From NCBI RefSeq assembly GCF_030013205.1, contig NZ_CP122649.1: a stretch of DNA of 64,000 nucleotides; one strand, written 5' to 3'. Below the pieces are notes generated by a model. It saw nothing but the letters and a program-made list of their open reading frames with translations. It had not been told where the DNA came from and made no database searches. The translations under genes and the position numbers were made by a program. Numbering within the stretch: the stretch's first letter is position 1; each line of letters starts with the position of its first letter. This DNA is from Escherichia coli. GTDB lineage: Bacteria > Pseudomonadota > Gammaproteobacteria > Enterobacterales > Enterobacteriaceae. Shown piece after piece: positions 5,235-33,932 of the stretch.

Positions 5235-5266
5235 GTTGGAGTCATTACCTATTTTTTTTACTACTC

Positions 5267-6073
5267 TCAAATTATTTTAATTCGAGGGAGAGCATAATCC
5301 ATTGTTTTGACGGTTCCATTTTCTTTAATTATATAGTGATGCCAACTATCTGATTTTGCGATTGCATCATCATATATACTTTGTGTAATTGCTAAAAAAT
5401 CTATGTTCATCCATGAAAATATCCCTTCATCAACAAATTCTTTTGATATTAATTCATAGTGACTATTTTTTTTCACTCCAACATATAACTTATATTTTTT
5501 CTCTATATTTTCAGCCAAACTATCAAATGAAATTATTGAGAAGTCACTTCGCTGTTGCCCTCTGATTAGTGCAGTTTTCTGTGTATTATTTTCATATTCT
5601 GATCTACGACCATGAACAAGGACATACTTGAAATTAAATGGATTTCTCCCCATATGTGCCGGTTCTATAAATCCCTGCAATATATTGTTTTTAAAGTGAT
5701 TTCTGTTTGATTCATCATCAAACCAAGCCCTCCATGTGTTCATTTGCTGCAAAGCAAGATTGAAGTCTGCATGAAAAGTTGTAGAGTTGTTTTTAAAATA
5801 TTTCGACGATGGTTTTTCAATTTCAACTAATACTACATTCCAGTTATCCGAGCTTTTTGATAAATATACGAAATCAGGTTTATAATCGCTTGATAGAGGC
5901 AACTTTCTAAATACCGTACTGAAGTGAATTCCATGGTTTTGCTCGAATTCTCTTGGTATGAACATTGTATTTTCTTCAAGGTATGTTTGATAAATCTGTT
6001 CATTCTCTTCTCGATCTAGTAATTCAAGATACTCTTTCTTTTTATCGTTTATTTCTTGACCAGTCATATACAT
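5267..6073 (-). CDS. hypothetical protein, 268 aa, AT-rich orphan gene with possible PD-(D/E)xK-like motif
   Basis: Clean 807-bp ORF, about 30 percent GC, between IS1 and the transposase remnant; motif KPDFVYL...VVLVEIEK. Confidence 0.6.
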   Translation of the reverse strand: MYMTGQEINDKKKEYLELLDREENEQIYQTYLEENTMFIPREFEQNHGIHFSTVFRKLPLSSDYKPDFVYLSKSSDNWNVVLVEIEKPSSKYFKNNSTTFHADFNLALQQMNTWRAWFDDESNRNHFKNNILQGFIEPAHMGRNPFNFKYVLVHGRRSEYENNTQKTALIRGQQRSDFSIISFDSLAENIEKKYKLYVGVKKNSHYELISKEFVDEGIFSWMNIDFLAITQSIYDDAIAKSDSWHHYIIKENGTVKTMDYALPRIKII

Positions 6074-7009: not shown

Positions 7010-8095
<1,086 letters not shown>

Positions 8096-8207
8096 TACGC
8101 CTATTTTTATAGGTTAATGTCATGATAATAATGGTTTCTTAGACGTCAGGTGGCACTTTTCGGGGAAATGTGCGCGGAACCCCTATTTGTTTATTTTTCT
8201 AAATACA

Positions 8208-8236
8208 TTCAAATATGTATCCGCTCATGAGACAAT
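8208..8236 (+). promoter_or_regulatory. blaTEM promoter (P3-type -35 TTCAAA / -10 GACAAT)
   Basis: TTCAAA, 17-bp spacer, GACAAT upstream of blaTEM. Confidence 0.7.
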
Positions 8237-8265
8237 AACCCTGGTAAATGCTTCAATAATATTGA

Positions 8266-9138
<873 letters not shown>

Positions 9139-9238
9139 CTGTCAGACCAAGTTTACTCATATATACTTTAGATTGATTTAAAACTTCATTTTTAATTTAA
9201 AAGGATCTAGGTGAAGATCCTTTTTGATAATCTCATGA

Positions 9239-9796
<558 letters not shown>

Positions 9797-9813
9797 GGAC
9801 AAGGAGGTGTGCG

Positions 9814-10176
9814 ATGAGCGCCTACACGGTATCGCAACTGGCCCATAACGCTGGGGTGAGCGTACATATCGTGCGCGACTACCTGGTGCGCGGCTTGTTA
9901 CGGCCGGTGGCCTGCACCACGGGCGGCTACGGCGTGTTCGACGATGCGGCCTTGCAACGGCTGTGCTTCGTGCGCGCGGCCTTCGAGGCGGGTATCGGCC
10001 TGGATGCCCTGGCGCGGCTGTGCCGTGCGCTCGACGCAGCGGACGGCGCACAAGCCGCAGCGCAGCTTGCCGTGCTGCGCCAGTTGGTCGAGCGGCGGCG
10101 CGCGGCGTTGGCCCATCTGGACGCGCAACTGGCCTCCATGCCAGCCGAGCGGGCGCACGAGGAGGCATTGCCGTGA
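9814..10176 (+). CDS. merD: MerD co-regulator
   Basis: [40 protein letters not shown]...; AAGGAGG RBS; the track ORF has an upstream extension. Confidence 0.88.
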
Positions 10177-10409
10177 ACGCCCCTGACAAACTGCCGCCCG
10201 AGACGCGCCAACCCGTTTCCGGCTACCTGTGGGGTGCGCTGGCCGTGTTGACCTGCCCCTGCCATCTGCCGATTCTCGCCGCCGTGCTGGCCGGGACGAC
10301 CGCCGGTGCCTTCCTTGGCGAGCATTGGGGTGTTGCCGCGCTCGCGCTGACCGGCTTGTTCGTTCTGGCCGTAACGCGGCTGCTGCGCGCCTTCCGGGGC
10401 GGATCATGA
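10173..10409 (+). CDS. merE: MerE mercury transporter
   Basis: GTG start overlapping merD stop; 78-aa product [41 protein letters not shown]... Confidence 0.85.
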
Positions 10410-11113
10410 CGAGTTCGCAGCCCGCCGGATGGACGGCGGCCGAGTTGGCGCAGGCGGCGGCGCGCGGACAGCTTGACCTGCATTACCAGCCGCTGGTCGA
10501 TCTGCGCGATCACCGGATCGCTGGCGCGGAAGCGTTGATGCGCTGGCGGCATCCGAGGCTTGGCCTGTTGCCGCCCGGCCAGTTCCTGCCGCTGGCCGAG
10601 TCGTTCGGCCTGATGCCGGAAATAGGCGCGTGGGTGCTGGGCGAGGCCTGTCGCCAGATGCACAAGTGGCAAGGACCGGCATGGCAACCGTTCCGTCTTG
10701 CCATCAATGTGTCCGCCAGCCAGGTTGGGCCAACGTTCGACGACGAGGTAAAGCGGGTGCTGGCCGATATGGCCCTGCCCGCCGAGCTTCTGGAGATCGA
10801 ACTGACCGAATCGGTCGCATTCGGCAATCCAGCCCTGTTCGCCAGTTTCGACGCCTTGCGCGCCATCGGCGTGCGCTTCGCCGCCGACGACTTCGGCACC
10901 GGCTATTCCTGCCTGCAACATCTGAAATGCTGCCCCATCACCACATTGAAAATCGACCAATCCTTTGTCGCCAGGCTCCCGGATGATGCCCGTGACCAAA
11001 CTATCGTGCGGGCGGTGATCCAGCTCGCGCACGGGCTGGGCATGGATGTCATTTTCAGAAGACGACTGCACCAGTTGATTGGGCGTAATGGCTGTTGTGC
11101 AGCCAGCTCCTGA
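10406..11113 (+). CDS. urf2: Tn21 urf2 (EAL-domain protein fragment reading into the integron IRt)
   Basis: [50 protein letters not shown]...; ATG overlaps the merE stop (ATGA). Confidence 0.8.
   Translation: MTSSQPAGWTAAELAQAAARGQLDLHYQPLVDLRDHRIAGAEALMRWRHPRLGLLPPGQFLPLAESFGLMPEIGAWVLGEACRQMHKWQGPAWQPFRLAINVSASQVGPTFDDEVKRVLADMALPAELLEIELTESVAFGNPALFASFDALRAIGVRFAADDFGTGYSCLQHLKCCPITTLKIDQSFVARLPDDARDQTIVRAVIQLAHGLGMDVIFRRRLHQLIGRNGCCAASS
11047..11071. repeat. IRt, 25-bp terminal inverted repeat of the Tn402-type integron tni end
   Basis: TGTCATTTTCAGAAGACGACTGCAC followed by the tniA start. Confidence 0.75.
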
Positions 11114-26327: not shown

Positions 26328-27729
26328 ATGGTTGATGTACTGGTGATTGGCGGTGGTAATGCCGCGCTATGCGCCGCCTTAACCGCTCGTGAGGCAGGAG
26401 CTTCCGTGCTGCTGTTAGAGGCTGCGCCTAGGGAATGGCGCGGCGGGAATTCCCAACACACGCGCAATTTACGCTGTATGCACGATGCACCACAGGATGT
26501 GCTGGTCGAGAGTTATCCCGAAGAGGAATTCTGGCAGGATCTCTGGCGTGTCACCGAAGGCAATACCAATGAAGCGTTGGCGCGCTTGGTGATTCGAACC
26601 TCTTCCCAGTGTCGTGACTGGATGCGTAAGCATGGGGTTAATTTTCAGCCTCCGCTTTCCGGCGCGCTGCATGTGGCGCGCACCAATGCCTTCTTCATGG
26701 GCGGTGGTAAAGCCCTCGTGAACGCCTATTACCGCAGTGCAGAAAAGCTGGGGGTACAGATTCGCTACAGCACGCCGGTACAGGCGCTTGAATTGCACAA
26801 CGGCAAATTCGTCGCAGCCCTGGCAGGTCACGAACGCATTGAGGCGAAAGCCTGCGTACTCGCCGCCGGCGGGTTTGAATCCAACCGTGAATGGCTACGC
26901 GACGCCTGGGGAGAGAACACTCGTGGCGAATGGCCAGCCGATAATTTCCTTATCCGCGGCACCCGCTTTAATCAGGGCGTCTTGCTCAAATTTATGATCA
27001 ATGCCGGGGCAGACATTATCGGTGATCCGTCTCAGTCCCACTGTGTGGCGATCGACGCACGGGCACCGTTGTACGACGGCGGAATTTGTACCCGCGTGGA
27101 TTGTGTCTCACTGGGTGTGGTAGTTAACCGGGATGCAGAACGCTTTTACGATGAAGGGGAAGATTTTTGGCCGAAACGCTATGCCATCTGGGGACGACTG
27201 GTTGCCCACCAACCGGGGCAGATTGGCTACTCCATTATCGACAGCAAAGCGATCGGTCACTTTATGCCGCCAGTTTTCCCCGGCGCACAGGCCAATACGC
27301 TAAGAGATCTGGCCCGCCAGTTGGGGCTGGATCCCGAACACTTTACCCACACCGTGGAACACTACAATCAGGCCTGTCAGCTGGGTCAGTTTGATCACAC
27401 TAAGCTGGACAACTGCGCGACGCAGGGCCTGACGCCACCGAAAACTCACTGGGCACGGCCTATTGATACCCCCCTACTACGGTTATGCCCTGCGACCAGG
27501 GATCACCTTTACCTATCTCGGACTGAAAGTGAATGAACACGCTGCGGTCCATTTCGCAGGCACGCCCAGCTGTAACCTTTTCGTTGCCGGTGAAATGATG
27601 GCTGGCAACGTACTGGGCAAGGGCTATACCGCCGGGGTCGGCATGTCCATTGGCACCACGTTTGGTCGCATCGCAGGTAAAGAAGCCGCGCAGGCAGCAC
27701 GCAAGGAGGCGCATCATGAAGCAGCTTGA
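26328..27729 (+). pseudogene. tcuA: FAD-dependent tricarballylate dehydrogenase TcuA, reading frame shifted near 27469-27474
   Basis: FAD-binding N-terminus VLVIGGGNAALCAALTA; C-terminal 88 aa continue in the +1 frame (track ORF 27463-27729) after a run of six C. Confidence 0.75.
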
Positions 27730-28909: not shown

Positions 28910-30205
28910 ATGACTCAACAACCATCGCGCGCTGGCACGTTCGGCGCAATACTGCGTGTGACCAGCGGTAATTTTCTCGAACAGTTCGATTTTTTCCTGT
29001 TTGGTTTTTACGCCACTTATATCGCAAAGACGTTTTTTCCTGCCGAAAGTGAGTTTGCCGCATTAATGCTTACTTTTGCCGTTTTTGGCTCCGGATTTTT
29101 AATGCGCCCTATCGGGGCCGTGGTGTTGGGCGCATATATCGACAGGATCGGCCGACGGAAAGGGCTGATGATCACCCTGGCGATTATGGGCTGCGGCACG
29201 TTGCTCATCGCCCTCGTGCCGGGTTATCAGACTATCGGCCTGCTGGCTCCCGTGCTGGTCCTGGTGGGGCGTCTGCTACAGGGATTTTCTGCTGGCGTCG
29301 AACTGGGCGGCGTCTCTGTTTATCTTTCTGAGATCGCCACGCCAGGCAATAAAGGCTTTTACACCAGTTGGCAATCGGCCAGCCAGCAGGTGGCGATTGT
29401 CGTCGCAGCGCTGATCGGCTACGGTCTGAATGTCACGCTGGGACACGATGAAATCTCCGAATGGGGTTGGCGAATCCCGTTCTTCATTGGCTGCATGATT
29501 ATTCCGCTGATTTTTGTTCTTCGACGTTCGCTACAGGAAACTGAAGCCTTTTTACAACGTAAACACCGTCCGGACACCCGGGAAATTTTTACCACCATTG
29601 CTAAAAACTGGCGCATCATCACCGCGGGTACCCTGCTGGTGGCGATGACGACCACGACCTTTTATTTTATTACTGTCTATACCCCCACTTACGGGAGAAC
29701 GGTGTTGAACCTGAGCGCACGTGACAGCCTAGTAGTCACCATGCTGGTAGGGATTTCTAACTTCATCTGGCTGCCGATTGGCGGCGCTATCTCTGATCGG
29801 ATCGGGCGACGCCCGGTGCTGATGGGCATCACCTTGCTCGCCCTCGTCACCACCTTGCCGGTGATGAACTGGCTTACCGCTGCCCCTGACTTCACCCGCA
29901 TGACGCTGGTGCTGCTCTGGTTCTCGTTCTTTTTTGGCATGTATAACGGCGCGATGGTGGCGGCCCTGACTGAAGTGATGCCGGTTTATGTCCGAACTGT
30001 GGGTTTTTCGCTGGCCTTTAGTCTCGCCACGGCGATTTTCGGCGGCCTGACACCAGCCATCTCCACCGCATTGGTCCAGTTGACTGGAGATAAAAGTTCT
30101 CCTGGATGGTGGCTAATGTGCGCTGCGCTGTGCGGACTCGCTGCGACGACAATGCTGTTTGCTCGTCTCAGTAGTGGTTATCAGACAGTAGAGAATAAGC
30201 TCTGA
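28910..30205 (+). CDS. tcuC: citrate/tricarballylate-proton symporter (MFS; TcuC/CitA)
   Basis: 431-aa MFS product [43 protein letters not shown]... Confidence 0.85.
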
Positions 30206-30210
30206 AACGC

Positions 30211-30245
30211 AAGCAGGCAGAGAAATATCTCTGCCTGCTTTCTCC
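30211..30245 (+). terminator. rho-independent terminator after tcuC
   Basis: Perfect stem AAGCAGGCAGAG / CTCTGCCTGCTT followed by TCTCC. Confidence 0.7.
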
Positions 30246-30601
30246 AGTGCGCCGTAAAACCGTGGCCACCGTGACACGGGAGTTACGTAACCGGGCTATA
30301 TGCCAACACTTCAGTGAGTTCGCCGGTGCATCGATGACTGGTTATGCCAGCAATGTTCAGAGGGAAGAATAATAATTGCGCAGGTAACGTAATATTCTCT
30401 TCAGAGATATATCATTTATGAATGAATAAGCTAAGTACTACCGCCTCCGGATGTGGATAAACATGTTCTGTGGCCCTGACAAAGCCTCAGAAGCGCCCCA
30501 CGGCATTTTCAGCAGTTTACAGTACCCGGGGTATCACTATGAGCCGTTTAAGCCAGCACCGGGTAATCGGCTAAATCCAAATTTACTCGATTTAGTTACC
30601 G

Positions 30602-30931
30602 ATGGTTTCGCCTCGAAGATCTGCATCCCTGACTCTACGTTGTCATGGTATTCGACAGGAAAACTATAATGATGCATCTATAGTTGCGATTTTAAACTCA
30701 ACTCAGTTAATGACTCTCATCGTCTCACCGAATCTTCTATCTGAGCTGAAAAATCTATCCATTCAGGAAGGATACATGCTAAAAATAGAAAATGTACTGC
30801 CGCCAAATTTTAGAGTATTCCTGGTCCGCGAAGGTTTCATTTTCCCGGGCGAATCATGGGTGTGTGGTTCCGGGTACTGGTTGCCTGAAAGTGAAGTACT
30901 CAAAAACGGAATCAACTCATTGCTTGTTTAA
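30602..30931 (+). CDS. hypothetical small protein (likely start at internal ATG near 30776, about 51 aa)
   Basis: Track ORF; internal ATG preceded by AGGAAGG; 30-bp gap to the next ORF. Confidence 0.3.
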   Translation: MVSPRRSASLTLRCHGIRQENYNDASIVAILNSTQLMTLIVSPNLLSELKNLSIQEGYMLKIENVLPPNFRVFLVREGFIFPGESWVCGSGYWLPESEVLKNGINSLLV

Positions 30932-30964
30932 TTAGCCGTTCCATCATACCGGAGACATTCTTTC

Positions 30965-31390
30965 ATGACTGACCAGGCCTCTATTCCCGTTGATACTCCA
31001 GTTCTGGCACTCGCAACTGATGCTTATTCATCACTAAAAAATATCCTCAATGACAATGGGACAAGCGACACCACAGGAACATGCATGTTCGCCAGTCTGC
31101 TGGTTTGTGAATTTGCGCACCGCAGAGGTATGTCCGCAGCTGTGCGAGGCGGGAACGGAACAGATGATGGTGGTATTTTCAATGAGTCTGGCGGGCACGG
31201 CCATTACTGGTGTGAGGTAAGTGCCGGTGAAATGATTTTTTATATCGATATTGCGGCCGAGCAGTTCGGCTACCCTTCGTTTATCATCAAAAATGCAAAT
31301 GACGTGTCAGGGTGGCCGCGATATATCCCCGGCGACCAGGTTACAGTAGATGAACACGTCAGGATTACGTTGTCTGGAGGCATTAGATAG
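30965..31390 (+). CDS. hypothetical protein, 141 aa
   Basis: ORF with GGAGA RBS; Cys/His-containing (TGTCMF..., GGHGHYWCEV); no family recognised. Confidence 0.5.
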   Translation: MTDQASIPVDTPVLALATDAYSSLKNILNDNGTSDTTGTCMFASLLVCEFAHRRGMSAAVRGGNGTDDGGIFNESGGHGHYWCEVSAGEMIFYIDIAAEQFGYPSFIIKNANDVSGWPRYIPGDQVTVDEHVRITLSGGIR

Positions 31391-31591
31391 TCCAGCCTTG
31401 TTTAACCAGTGAAGCCTAGAATATTGAGATTCAGCCAGGAATAAGGCTGACAACATCATAATTACTGTTAATTAAATGATAGACATTTAGAGTCAAACAT
31501 CCAAGATTTAAAAGCGGCGTCACAGAACTATTAAGGAATGAATTTTTTTACCCTTAAACAAAACCACCGCTTCAGAATGGATAGGCGAATC

Positions 31592-31813
31592 TTACATTAC
31601 AGGAGTTTTTTTCCAGCTGCCAATTTGTTCATGAATCTGCCTTTCAATTCTTTCCACATGAGCTAATAGCTCAGTGTAACCAGGCAGATTGGCGCCAATA
31701 TCACCTTCCCACTGACGGGTTAGCAGGCGGACTTTATCTTTTAGTGTTGAAAGCTGAGTGAGTTGCTTTTTGGCAATCACAATCTCTTCAGAGTATAAAT
31801 TCTTCTTTGGCAT
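31592..31813 (-). CDS. hypothetical protein, 73 aa
   Basis: Track ORF; predicted helical small protein. Confidence 0.35.
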   Translation of the reverse strand: MPKKNLYSEEIVIAKKQLTQLSTLKDKVRLLTRQWEGDIGANLPGYTELLAHVERIERQIHEQIGSWKKTPVM

Positions 31814-31953
31814 ACATTATAAAATTTAACTTAGGTAATGAAGCCTACCTTTTAACACAACCTCGCTTTATTGCAACATTTAATTACATTTACATTCCAC
31901 AGGAACTATAAATTGACCAATATCCAGCACTGCTCCCGTGATTTAGGTTAGCA

Positions 31954-32382
31954 TCATTCCCGGAGTGCAGAGGGATCTTGCAGAGTTTCCGTAAGACGCA
32001 TTTGCAGGTCAGCGACCTCATCCTGAATGCCTTTGAGCTCCGACTGACGGATAATTTCATGGTCGGGCTGATATTCAAACAACGCGAGGAAATCGGCCGT
32101 CAGAAACCGATGCTCATTCAGTCTCTTGTCTTTCGTTGATTTTGAACCGTTCTCAGCGACGATTTCAACGCTTACCCATTCCCCGTAATGCCGGGGGTGA
32201 GCGCGAAGGATGACGGTATGCAGATTGTTATCCACGTACCGCAACGAGTTAATGAGGAGAGTGTCCCCGGCCACAATCGCCTCAGCCGGAATATCGACGA
32301 GCGCAGACCAATACTGCCCTGCCAGCAGAGAATGAAATCGTTCAAGGCGATCGATATTATTTTTACTGACCAGGTCCCCCAT
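31954..32382 (-). CDS. hypothetical protein, 142 aa
   Basis: Track ORF; no recognised motif. Confidence 0.45.
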   Translation of the reverse strand: MGDLVSKNNIDRLERFHSLLAGQYWSALVDIPAEAIVAGDTLLINSLRYVDNNLHTVILRAHPRHYGEWVSVEIVAENGSKSTKDKRLNEHRFLTADFLALFEYQPDHEIIRQSELKGIQDEVADLQMRLTETLQDPSALRE

Positions 32383-32657
32383 AAACTATACCTTCCGAAT
32401 TTGTTTGTTATAAACATCATACCATATTGGCTGTTCACCCAAATAACCTGGCATGCGGAAACAGGTGATTCATTTAAAACAGAGCCTGTCCATTTTAAAT
32501 GGTGGAATCCAGCAAATTAAATACAGCCATTATCAAACGAGTTGAGGATTAAAGCATGTATTGCAGGAGTATGGATTTAATTGCCCATTAAGCCACGCGC
32601 CTTTAAAGACATAGACCTAATGAGCGTTTTGTATTATAAATCTCACGCAAATTTATG

Positions 32658-33011
32658 TTATTTATTTGGCTGAACTATTTCCCAGTATCTTTCATAAACA
32701 CTGAACTGGCATTTAGATATGTCATCTGAAGAGGATCTTGTTCGTGTAACAAATGCTTCTATTGTATCTTCTGATTGTTTAGATAGTTTATCACCTGGTT
32801 GTTTGTGAAGAATCATTAGTAATGTTTCAGTAGCTTTCTTTCTCATCTCCACTGGATCAGTTAAACCACCAGCATCTATGCACATGTTTGAAGTAACTGC
32901 GTCGTACCCTAAATAAGGTATTGGGTCCCTTTTTATATTCTGCTTATCGCTGGCATGAACAGAAAATACCAATGAAATTATTCCTGCCAATACAATGTTT
33001 TTAATTTTCAT
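32658..33011 (-). CDS. hypothetical secreted protein (signal peptide)
   Basis: Start at MKIKNIVLAGIISLVFSVHA with GGAG RBS; the track ORF extends 10 codons upstream. Confidence 0.5.
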   Translation of the reverse strand: MKIKNIVLAGIISLVFSVHASDKQNIKRDPIPYLGYDAVTSNMCIDAGGLTDPVEMRKKATETLLMILHKQPGDKLSKQSEDTIEAFVTRTRSSSDDISKCQFSVYERYWEIVQPNK

Positions 33012-33158
33012 ATGTTTCTCCATTACTATCACCAAGTTCAAAACATAATTTTTATATCACAAATCTTTCTAAGCAATAAACAGCTAATTCCTGTTGTGAA
33101 GCATCATTTTTCATCCCGGCGTACAAATGACACCGGGAACAGAATCCGTCAGGAATTT

Positions 33159-33773
33159 TCAAGGCATAGATAAATTGTTATCACACCAATATTGATGCAG
33201 GCCTGCAATCCATACTTTCGAGACTGCCGACAGCGTCTGCGCCAGATCACGCATACATTCAGGTGTGAATAACCGGACTGGCTCCCCCATACCGTCACTC
33301 GCAGTGATGATGTGCTCCAGGATGTTCCCGTGACATAAATTGTGCCGAACCCTCACGATTTCCGCATAGGGTAGTTTCGGGGCGCCGTCCGCAATCTTGG
33401 TCAGCAGATCCTGCTCGTCGGGAAAGGCCAGCAGTGTCACCGGCATACCGGCCTGGTGAGCCCTTCTTAGCAGAGCATTACTGAGTGTGGCCATATCGCT
33501 TAAGTCCACCAGCGGTGTTGGTGCCTGCGGTTGTGCCTGCGACGCCTTCAGCTTCATCGTCACCCTCAGTGAGGTCTCAATCCCGTTCAGGAAAGTCGTA
33601 CAGGCGGCTAGCCACAACTCACCGTGAATGGCCCGGGTAGCCTGGTCAAAGAACCAGTCAATCGCAGCTGTCGTTCGGTACGCCCTGTATGCCTCCAGTT
33701 CCCGTAACTGTGCCAGGTACTTCTCGCACGCCTCTGCGTCTACCGGATCGTTATCGTCGGTATCGATAGCCAT
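33159..33773 (-). CDS. hypothetical protein, 204 aa
   Basis: Track ORF, higher GC than neighbours; no recognised motif. Confidence 0.45.
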   Translation of the reverse strand: MAIDTDDNDPVDAEACEKYLAQLRELEAYRAYRTTAAIDWFFDQATRAIHGELWLAACTTFLNGIETSLRVTMKLKASQAQPQAPTPLVDLSDMATLSNALLRRAHQAGMPVTLLAFPDEQDLLTKIADGAPKLPYAEIVRVRHNLCHGNILEHIITASDGMGEPVRLFTPECMRDLAQTLSAVSKVWIAGLHQYWCDNNLSMP

Positions 33774-33912
33774 AGGGAATTCCTGTTGTCATGTTCGTGA
33801 ATGAAAATCCGCTGAACCATATCATACCGTTACATAAATTACGGCTTAGTGCCGGGATATCTTTCCCGAATGCTGAGCCATTGAAATTTGATCTTTTCTC
33901 TTTATCTGGTAA

Positions 33913-33932
33913 TACTGGTTAAATATCCAGTA
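33913..33932 (+). promoter_or_regulatory. LexA (SOS) box upstream of umuD-like gene
   Basis: TACTGGTTAAATATCCAGTA fits the CTG-N10-CAG consensus, about 20 bp before the ATG. Confidence 0.7.

Follow-up and report, generated by a model that had tools for sequence, protein, structure and literature searches.

The uncharacterised genes between umuDC and the tcu cargo of an IncHI1-type plasmid as a probable piece of eroding ancestral IncHI backbone

The segment at positions 30,451 to 33,773 of a 64,000-nucleotide stretch of Escherichia coli DNA (contig NZ_CP122649.1, the whole stretch being called the window here) is flanked on one side by tcuR-(tcuA)-tcuB and a major facilitator superfamily (MFS) transporter gene and on the other side by umuD/umuC, and its host replicon is an IncHI1-type conjugative plasmid (MOBH/MPF_F). 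We read the segment, with a probability of about 80%, as ancestral IncHI backbone that lies between umuDC and a cargo-insertion site, here filled by the tcu/'cit' genes, and that is being eroded by deletions, and we reject the view that it is an acquired island. Two of its genes now have a place in known superfamilies: a stand-alone HEPN-fold protein of 204 residues and a papain/transglutaminase-like protein of 141 residues, both of which had already been hinted at by automated UniRef names. In Enterobacteriaceae from typhoid and livestock, IncHI1 plasmids are carriers of multidrug resistance, and over half of the core genes of these plasmids are labelled 'hypothetical'. With a fold and a catalytic motif, two of the core proteins become testable candidates for roles in plasmid-host or plasmid-phage conflict. 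The current understanding of these plasmids is not overturned; the least ordinary items are the core HEPN protein without a partner and a 1,111-residue protein, of which the window retains only the start.

The gene order supports this reading. In R27, the IncHI1 prototype, it is DsbA – umuC – umuD / 204 aa – 117 aa – 1,111 aa – 62/73 aa – 124 aa – 141 aa (opposite strand) / tcuC-tcuB-tcuA, and in IncHI2 plasmids umuDC is followed in the same order by genes for proteins of about 202, 117, and 1,111 residues. The IncHI1B plasmid pRHBSTW-00435_2 from Citrobacter (L006) encodes proteins of 209, 139, 1,113, 73, 199, 176, and 153 residues, where the 199-residue coding sequence (CDS) is the 141-residue gene called with an N-terminal extension, and the IncHI1A plasmid pYLPD7a (L007) has the order common to R27, IncHI1B, and IncHI2. 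The ancestral order, as kept in R27, is umuDC / HEPN – small secreted – 1,111-aa – 73-aa – (124-aa ORF) – 141-aa (opposite strand) / cargo. Both outer genes, for the HEPN protein and the 141-residue enzyme, are intact in all lineages examined, including an E. coli lineage (L020/L021) that has kept these two, has lost the middle, and has different cargo adjoining. Over the 3.8 kb around the segment, the window is a 100% match to the E. coli ETEC4079 plasmid unnamed2 (NZ_CP122645.1, whose record positions minus 1 give window positions) and to the Salmonella plasmid pB71 (KP899806). The R27/pHCM1-type IncHI1 backbone described by Kubasova et al. (2016; PMC5390554), with pB71 being 100% identical over the region, has the same genes in the same order, and all genes of the segment were left as 'hypothetical' in that study.

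Conservation and expression, on which the original prediction for this segment depended, are both found for several of the ORFs. The dN/dS values against the IncHI1B homologue range from 0.10 to 0.50 for the real genes, and peptides were reported from pB71 for the 204-, 117-, 142-, and 141-residue products (PMC5390554 Table S3). Some points weigh against our reading. The proteins of the window reach no Pfam threshold, and the enzymatic roles of the HEPN and 141-residue proteins are predictions. The peptide support is weak evidence for both the 141-residue product (one peptide in pB71) and the 142-residue product (one peptide with two peptide-spectrum matches in pB71; both from PMC5390554 Table S3). 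Finally, the polarity of two indels, one of 445 bp specific to R27 and one of 489 bp specific to the window, is read from a single outgroup (L006).

None of the proteins had been considered assignable in the original prediction. This agrees with their official status, as they are uncharacterised and no open reading frame (ORF) of the segment has a match with a meaningful score in profile scans against Pfam, NCBIfam, PADLOC, and PHROGs, but it does not hold for the HEPN and papain/transglutaminase-like proteins, which can be given a fold and a catalytic motif. The 204-residue protein forms an all-alpha up-down helical bundle with a conserved R-x4-6-H on the motif helix, as is characteristic of the HEPN superfamily. 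In an alignment of 33 sequences, with homologues down to 38% identity, the block V140-R141-x-R143-(H-N)-x-C147-H148-G149-N150 is invariant and provides an R-x4-H motif with a polar residue after the arginine, H144 and N145 being nearly invariant. A second invariant block is G64-x-E66-x-S68. The closest named family is the MAE_28990/MAE_18760-like HEPN (Pfam ID PF18737, HEPN_MAE_28990), to which the protein itself has no match, staying below the gathering threshold, and to which 5 of the 33 family members match weakly (best E value 0.038); one homologue bears the UniRef name 'MAE-28990/MAE-18760-like HEPN domain-containing'. A PDB sequence profile search with the family returned noise only. Structural neighbours are AF0298 (PDB ID 2hsb), the HEPN-MNT toxins (PDB IDs 7ae2 and 5yep), LsoA/RnlA, and Csm6, and the protein differs from known HEPN structures in an insertion of about 55 residues that separates its third long helix from the motif helix.

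Homologues of the HEPN protein form 73 clusters. They are encoded on IncHI1 and IncHI2 plasmids, and those from Halomonadaceae, Vibrio, Synechococcus, and marine metagenomes are 40-50% identical. The gene (GC content 0.5528, 615 nt), with a dN/dS of 0.36, is IncHI1 core gene #122, and its peptides were detected in all three culture conditions and for all four plasmids studied (PMC5390554 Table S3). Growing cells contain detectable amounts of the protein, which is thus presumably not freely toxic but latent or tightly specific. Other HEPN nucleases act as dimers, and some HEPN domains are non-catalytic. The conserved motif and the fold suggest that the 204-residue protein is most likely a metal-independent endoribonuclease working as a dimer. 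Being a core gene of a conjugative plasmid and divergent from umuDC, the gene is placed unlike those of known HEPN systems.

An alternative is a toxin-antitoxin or abortive-infection module in which the HEPN protein is the toxin and a small neighbour (the 117-residue protein or another one) the antidote, with a role in plasmid maintenance or phage defence. This has some attraction, as the structural neighbours include the HEPN-MNT toxins, LsoA/RnlA, and AbiA, and distant homologues lie in settings of the defence or mobile type, with HsdR and HEPN_Toprim_N in Vreelandella and CHAT, HNH, and IS66 in Halieaceae. We nevertheless consider it unlikely. In contrast to the HEPN-MNT pairs, there is no adjacent MNT antitoxin or other partner gene, the neighbours being the divergent umuD and, past a gap of 147 bp, the exported 117-residue protein, and no ORF of the segment has a nucleotidyltransferase domain. 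No partner gene is conserved across the IncHI (umuD and the exported protein), Vreelandella, and Halieaceae contexts, and the L020 lineage has lost the neighbouring genes with the HEPN gene intact. Furthermore, there is no PADLOC match, and the detection of the protein in growing cells also speaks against a toxin.

In Vreelandella profundi (L008 2660-5587), the distant HEPN homologue is found in a run of small genes (212, 180, 186, and 138 aa), which is flanked by the type I restriction gene HsdR on one side and by HEPN_Toprim_N on the other side (called with 154 residues in L008 and with 435 residues in L010, a related contig). This setting looks like a defence island.

A further idea, to which we give only a small chance, is that the partner-less HEPN protein, perhaps together with the 1,111-residue protein normally encoded two genes away, is an undescribed plasmid-borne conflict system. 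Such a system could defend against phages or rival plasmids with a single RNase gene, or act as an entry or establishment factor. Neither of the two proteins is recognised by any defence database or domain library, and if the idea were true, the repeated loss of the large gene described below would point to selection that is relaxed or fluctuates.

SOS control of the HEPN gene is not supported, as no canonical LexA box (CTGT-N8-ACAG with at most one mismatch) was found in the intergenic region that it shares with umuD. Only a CTGG-N8-CCAG palindrome is present, beside umuD (TACTGG-N8-CCAGTA, window 33911-33930) and about 20 nt before the start of this gene. The umuDC copy may be under SOS control via a variant operator, or under none.

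The 142-residue ORF matches residues 1-142 of the 1,111-residue protein of pYLPD7a (WP_000502663) at 100% identity. It is 92% identical to the IncHI1B 1,113-residue protein and 59% identical to the IncHI2 1,111-residue protein, and no further part of the large gene was found in the window. Intact plasmids have two copies of the sequence GCACTCCGGGAA 3,062 bp apart (L007 3915-3926 and 6977-6988 in pYLPD7a). In the window, a single copy remains, with the new stop codon TGA (31956-31954) directly after it, and the stretch missing relative to R27 (L018 4279-7340) measures 3,062 bp, with flanks that are 99-100% identical to the intact plasmids. On this three-way comparison, a deletion of 3,062 bp between 12-bp direct repeats has removed codons 143-1111 and left the 142-residue ORF. 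Of 72,556 plasmid records, only 4 cover a query across the junction in full; the deletion is therefore recent and lineage specific, and its junction offers a simple marker for the lineage of pB71-type plasmids. The truncation was not remarked in pB71 gene 169 by Kubasova et al. (2016; PMC5390554). In contrast to pB71, the large gene is apparently intact in p109-9, another plasmid of that study, where the gene in the corresponding position, identified by order and GC content only, yielded four to five peptides.

Two further deletions affect the large gene. In pSE81-1706-type plasmids, a separate deletion of 3,717 bp also shortens the secreted-protein gene to 83 residues, and in the L020/L021 E. 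coli lineage, a deletion of about 3.8 kb takes the secreted-protein gene together with the first approximately 1,000 codons of the large gene and alters a few codons at the end of the HEPN gene. At least three independent losses of the large gene have thus occurred among IncHI1-related lineages. The gene is intact in R27 (L018 3853-7188) and pYLPD7a (L007 3501-6836). The plasmid pHCM1 (NC_003384) matches the junction query at two separate places, like R27, and probably keeps both ends of the gene; of these two plasmids, R27 is the one where the gene is confirmed to be intact. The N-terminal region of the 1,111-residue protein has homologues in 1,617 plasmid records, including IncHI1 and IncHI2 plasmids and those of Klebsiella, Moellerella, Xanthomonas, and Pseudomonas, and the protein has no match in Pfam, PADLOC, or PDB sequence searches. 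It is widespread and repeatedly lost, and no domain is recognisable in it.

It is improbable that the 142-residue stump is an autonomous N-terminal domain that has a function of its own and is kept by selection. The promoter, the Shine-Dalgarno sequence, and the first 142 codons are 100% intact, the product is represented by the pB71 peptide mentioned above, and the dN/dS of the N-terminus against IncHI1B is 0.10, the lowest of any part measured. However, the dN/dS of a stump, be it the 142-residue ORF or the tail of a 153-residue gene described below, reflects the history before the truncation. The deletion is moreover recent and rare, with four records, and the N-terminus is wholly deleted in other lineages.

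The secreted protein of the original prediction was recovered as the 117-residue protein, from whose sequence a plain Sec signal peptide can be read (MKIKNIVLAGIISLVFSVHA, with cleavage before SD). Its homologues are found only on enterobacterial plasmids, in 11 clusters and 971 plasmid records (tblastn). With an identity of 55-58% to IncHI1B and 29% to IncHI2 and a dN/dS of 0.50, it is fast evolving, and it is among the better-detected products, with four unique peptides in pB71 and six in p109-9 (PMC5390554). The 73-residue protein, which was found in 347 plasmid records (tblastn), matches no family. It is 90% identical to the 73-residue protein of L006, where the DNA identity is about 73.5%, it has a dN/dS of 0.19, and its gene comes after the 1,111-residue gene in R27, pYLPD7a, and L006. 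Both the 117- and the 73-residue ORFs are real genes under purifying selection.

The original prediction described the segment as a gene island whose GC content changes from gene to gene. The GC shifts are indeed present, from 0.345 in the 117-residue gene to 0.553 in the 204-residue gene, but the same contrast between the HEPN gene and the secreted-protein gene is seen in the orthologues (0.516 and 0.386 in IncHI1B, and 0.445 and 0.390 in IncHI2); it is therefore an old gene-specific trait and no sign of recent mosaic acquisition. The annotation and the repeat scan show no integrase, tRNA, or bounding repeats at the segment. Of the features of a genomic island, neither absence from relatives, nor boundary elements, nor a block-wide compositional break is found, as the GC heterogeneity is per gene. 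A mosaic of unrelated small genes, each acquired horizontally, would fit the GC range, the many indels at the locus among IncHI1 plasmids, and the position of the segment next to cargo genes and about 6 kb from a resistance region bounded by IS26. This origin is largely refuted by the identical gene order in R27, IncHI1B, and IncHI2 and is hard to combine with the HEPN gene being counted among the 122 IncHI1 core genes, so that we regard it as quite improbable and retain the segment as old IncHI backbone.

A piece of about 445 bp with a 124- or 128-residue ORF is present in R27- and pSE81-1706-type plasmids (L018 7877-8321 and L002 3744-4188) and is found neither in the window, where the junction lies at 31421, nor in the IncHI1B outgroup.

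The 141-residue protein has a papain-like alpha+beta fold and, by residue conservation, a conserved Cys-His-Asp triad, which agrees with the transglutaminase/papain-like enzymes of Pfam clan CA. The full HMMER scan yielded 198 representative homologues, mostly of 130-170 residues, and 43 sequences with 25-42% identity to the query share C40, G63, H80, W82, D95, and F101 as invariant residues. The protein itself does not match Transglut_core or Transglut_core3 in Pfam. Weak matches within the family (E values of 0.002-0.04) are found to Transglut_core for 2 of the 43 sequences (best E value 0.0018), to Transglut_core3 for one, and to Tox-PLDMTX for three, and the UniRef name on the protein is 'transglutaminase-like domain-containing'. 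As for the HEPN family, the PDB sequence profile search gave noise only. The nearest structures are Atu2299 (PDB ID 2hly), the SseI catalytic domain (PDB ID 4g29), TglA, and LapG. Common to the protein and the clan is the cysteine on the N-terminal helix with the histidine and aspartate on the following β-strands, whereas the protein is near the minimal size of the fold and lacks accessory domains. It has no signal peptide and is therefore presumably cytoplasmic, and it also lacks a secretion-signal domain, unlike SseI, LapG, and PMT. The fold and the triad suggest a protein or peptide as the substrate, which the enzyme most likely cleaves or modifies by deamidation or acylation. The description of the protein as Cys/His-rich is not borne out, as it contains only three cysteines and four histidines.

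The gene of the 141-residue protein, with a dN/dS of 0.26 against IncHI1B, is intact in every IncHI lineage examined and always lies at the edge of the cargo site, next to tcu in the R27 and pB71 types and next to a CitMHS symporter and a malic enzyme in L020/L021. In the latter lineage, the CitMHS-type symporter and the malic enzyme (7838-10606) adjoin the gene in place of tcu. This suggests that the site is a recurrent insertion point for organic-acid metabolism cargo. A 43%-identical homologue of the 141-residue protein is located on a 64-kb contig (L015 2700-7672) among toxin-antitoxin genes of the VapBC, CcdAB, and Phd/ParE types and a resolvase gene, which is a plasmid-maintenance neighbourhood.

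The six or seven ORFs of the original prediction exist, but three of them are not independent genes, being two stumps (72 and 142 residues) and one doubtful upstream ORF; identifying two annotated CDSs as deletion stumps corrects the annotation. The first stump is the 72-residue ORF. Residues 77-152 of the 153-residue protein of pRHBSTW-00435_2 (L006 11692-12153) match window 30439-30666 with 80% identity (tblastn), and the DNA homology to the 153-residue gene begins at 30437, where the similarity to the sequence flanking tcu in R27 ends. As the homology stops at the edge of the tcu module, the N-terminal half of the gene is missing, and the ORF is the tail of the 153-residue gene, cut at the cargo boundary. 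The tail has a dN/dS of 0.20 against IncHI1B. The possibility that the 153-residue gene is a paralogue of the 141-residue enzyme is unsupported, with an hhalign probability of 0.3.

The region 30441-30929 (489 bp) is wholly absent from R27 and pSE81-1706, and no more than 35 nt upstream of the R27-type 141-residue gene are kept. The 51-residue ORF, described as a tiny ORF coupled to the 141-residue gene, does not overlap with it; the two are in the same frame with one stop codon and 11 codons in between. It is absent from R27-type plasmids, its region is 41% identical to the IncHI1B (L006) counterpart compared with 71% for the 141-residue gene, and zero peptides were found for the corresponding pB71 gene 171, which was identified by its GC content of 0.415 over 330 nt (PMC5390554 Table S3). 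A good Shine-Dalgarno sequence, AGGAAGG, is the sole point in favour of a real gene, and the 51/109-residue ORF is probably no gene. The idea that the small upstream ORF and the 141-residue protein form a peptide-maturation pair, like the precursor of a lasso peptide or another ribosomally synthesized and post-translationally modified peptide (RiPP) with its B2 leader peptidase, which was considered because Atu2299 was the modelling template in a lasso-peptide study, can practically be dismissed, since no cyclase (Asn-synthetase-like, C), RiPP recognition element (B1), or exporter gene lies nearby, with none of such cluster genes within 15 kb, the small ORF is poorly conserved, without peptides, and absent from R27-type plasmids, in which the 141-residue gene is kept, no co-conserved small ORF precedes family members in two contexts, and distant homologues of the enzyme are located among toxin-antitoxin genes or small-ORF arrays and not in RiPP clusters.

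Table 1. Features of the segment and its cargo-side edge (window positions)
Feature	Position	Strand	Basis or remark
Palindromic hairpin, probably the terminator of the tcu/'cit' cargo module	30198..30251		Just past the tcuC (MFS) stop
3' stump of a 153-aa gene (72-aa ORF at 30451-30669)	30437..30669	+	tblastn and DNA homology
51-aa CDS, doubtful as a gene, within a 109-aa ORF (start at 30602)	30776..30931	+	PGAP
141-aa CDS, cytoplasmic papain/transglutaminase-like protein, predicted Cys40-His80-Asp95 triad	30965..31390	+	PGAP
Conserved small protein, 73 aa	31592..31813	-	PGAP calls a 62-aa CDS (31592-31780) from GTG at 31780, extendable to 73 aa with the start at 31813
142-aa CDS, 5' stump of a conserved plasmid gene for 1,111 aa, comprising codons 1-142	31954..32382	-	PGAP; sequence comparison
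Deletion junction, sole remaining copy of the 12-bp direct repeat GCACTCCGGGAA	31957..31968	-	Three-way junction comparison
117-aa CDS, small secreted protein with Sec signal peptide, AT-rich (GC 0.345)	32658..33011	-	PGAP
204-aa CDS, stand-alone HEPN-fold protein, invariant R143-x4-H148, probable RNase, IncHI1 core gene	33159..33773	-	PGAP

The short ORFs of the original prediction are all present, and six CDSs are called in the segment by PGAP (NZ_CP122645.1), each as "hypothetical" (Table 1). The Rfam scan found no RNA family and the repeat scan no meaningful repeats in the segment, and the number of sites in the promoter and terminator scan is not above that in shuffled sequence. No literature was located via the protein accessions or on IncHI1 plasmids with tricarballylate. 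The flanking metabolic genes had been called the cit locus, which matches the names citA/citB given by the authors of pB71 and differs from the PGAP annotation as tcuR/tcuB/MFS (tricarballylate utilisation). The hairpin after tcuC, which ends at 30205, appears as a self-complementary BLAST match (30211-30240) and was seen by cmscan on both strands as a meaningless miRNA match. Further on, beyond umuDC, lie DsbA-like genes and Tra1 genes (trhG, trhH, and mobI).

Within the cargo module, tcuA is apparently interrupted (window 26328-27536), the longest ORF having 402 residues and ending about 190 nt before tcuB. An intact tcuA encodes 467 residues and overlaps tcuB; the gene is here also absent from the PLSDB gene table, which omits pseudogenes. 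In the resistance region, a CDS annotated as 'Shedu immune nuclease family protein' (window 5266-6066) is located between IS1 and IS26 copies and is possibly a defence-gene fragment.

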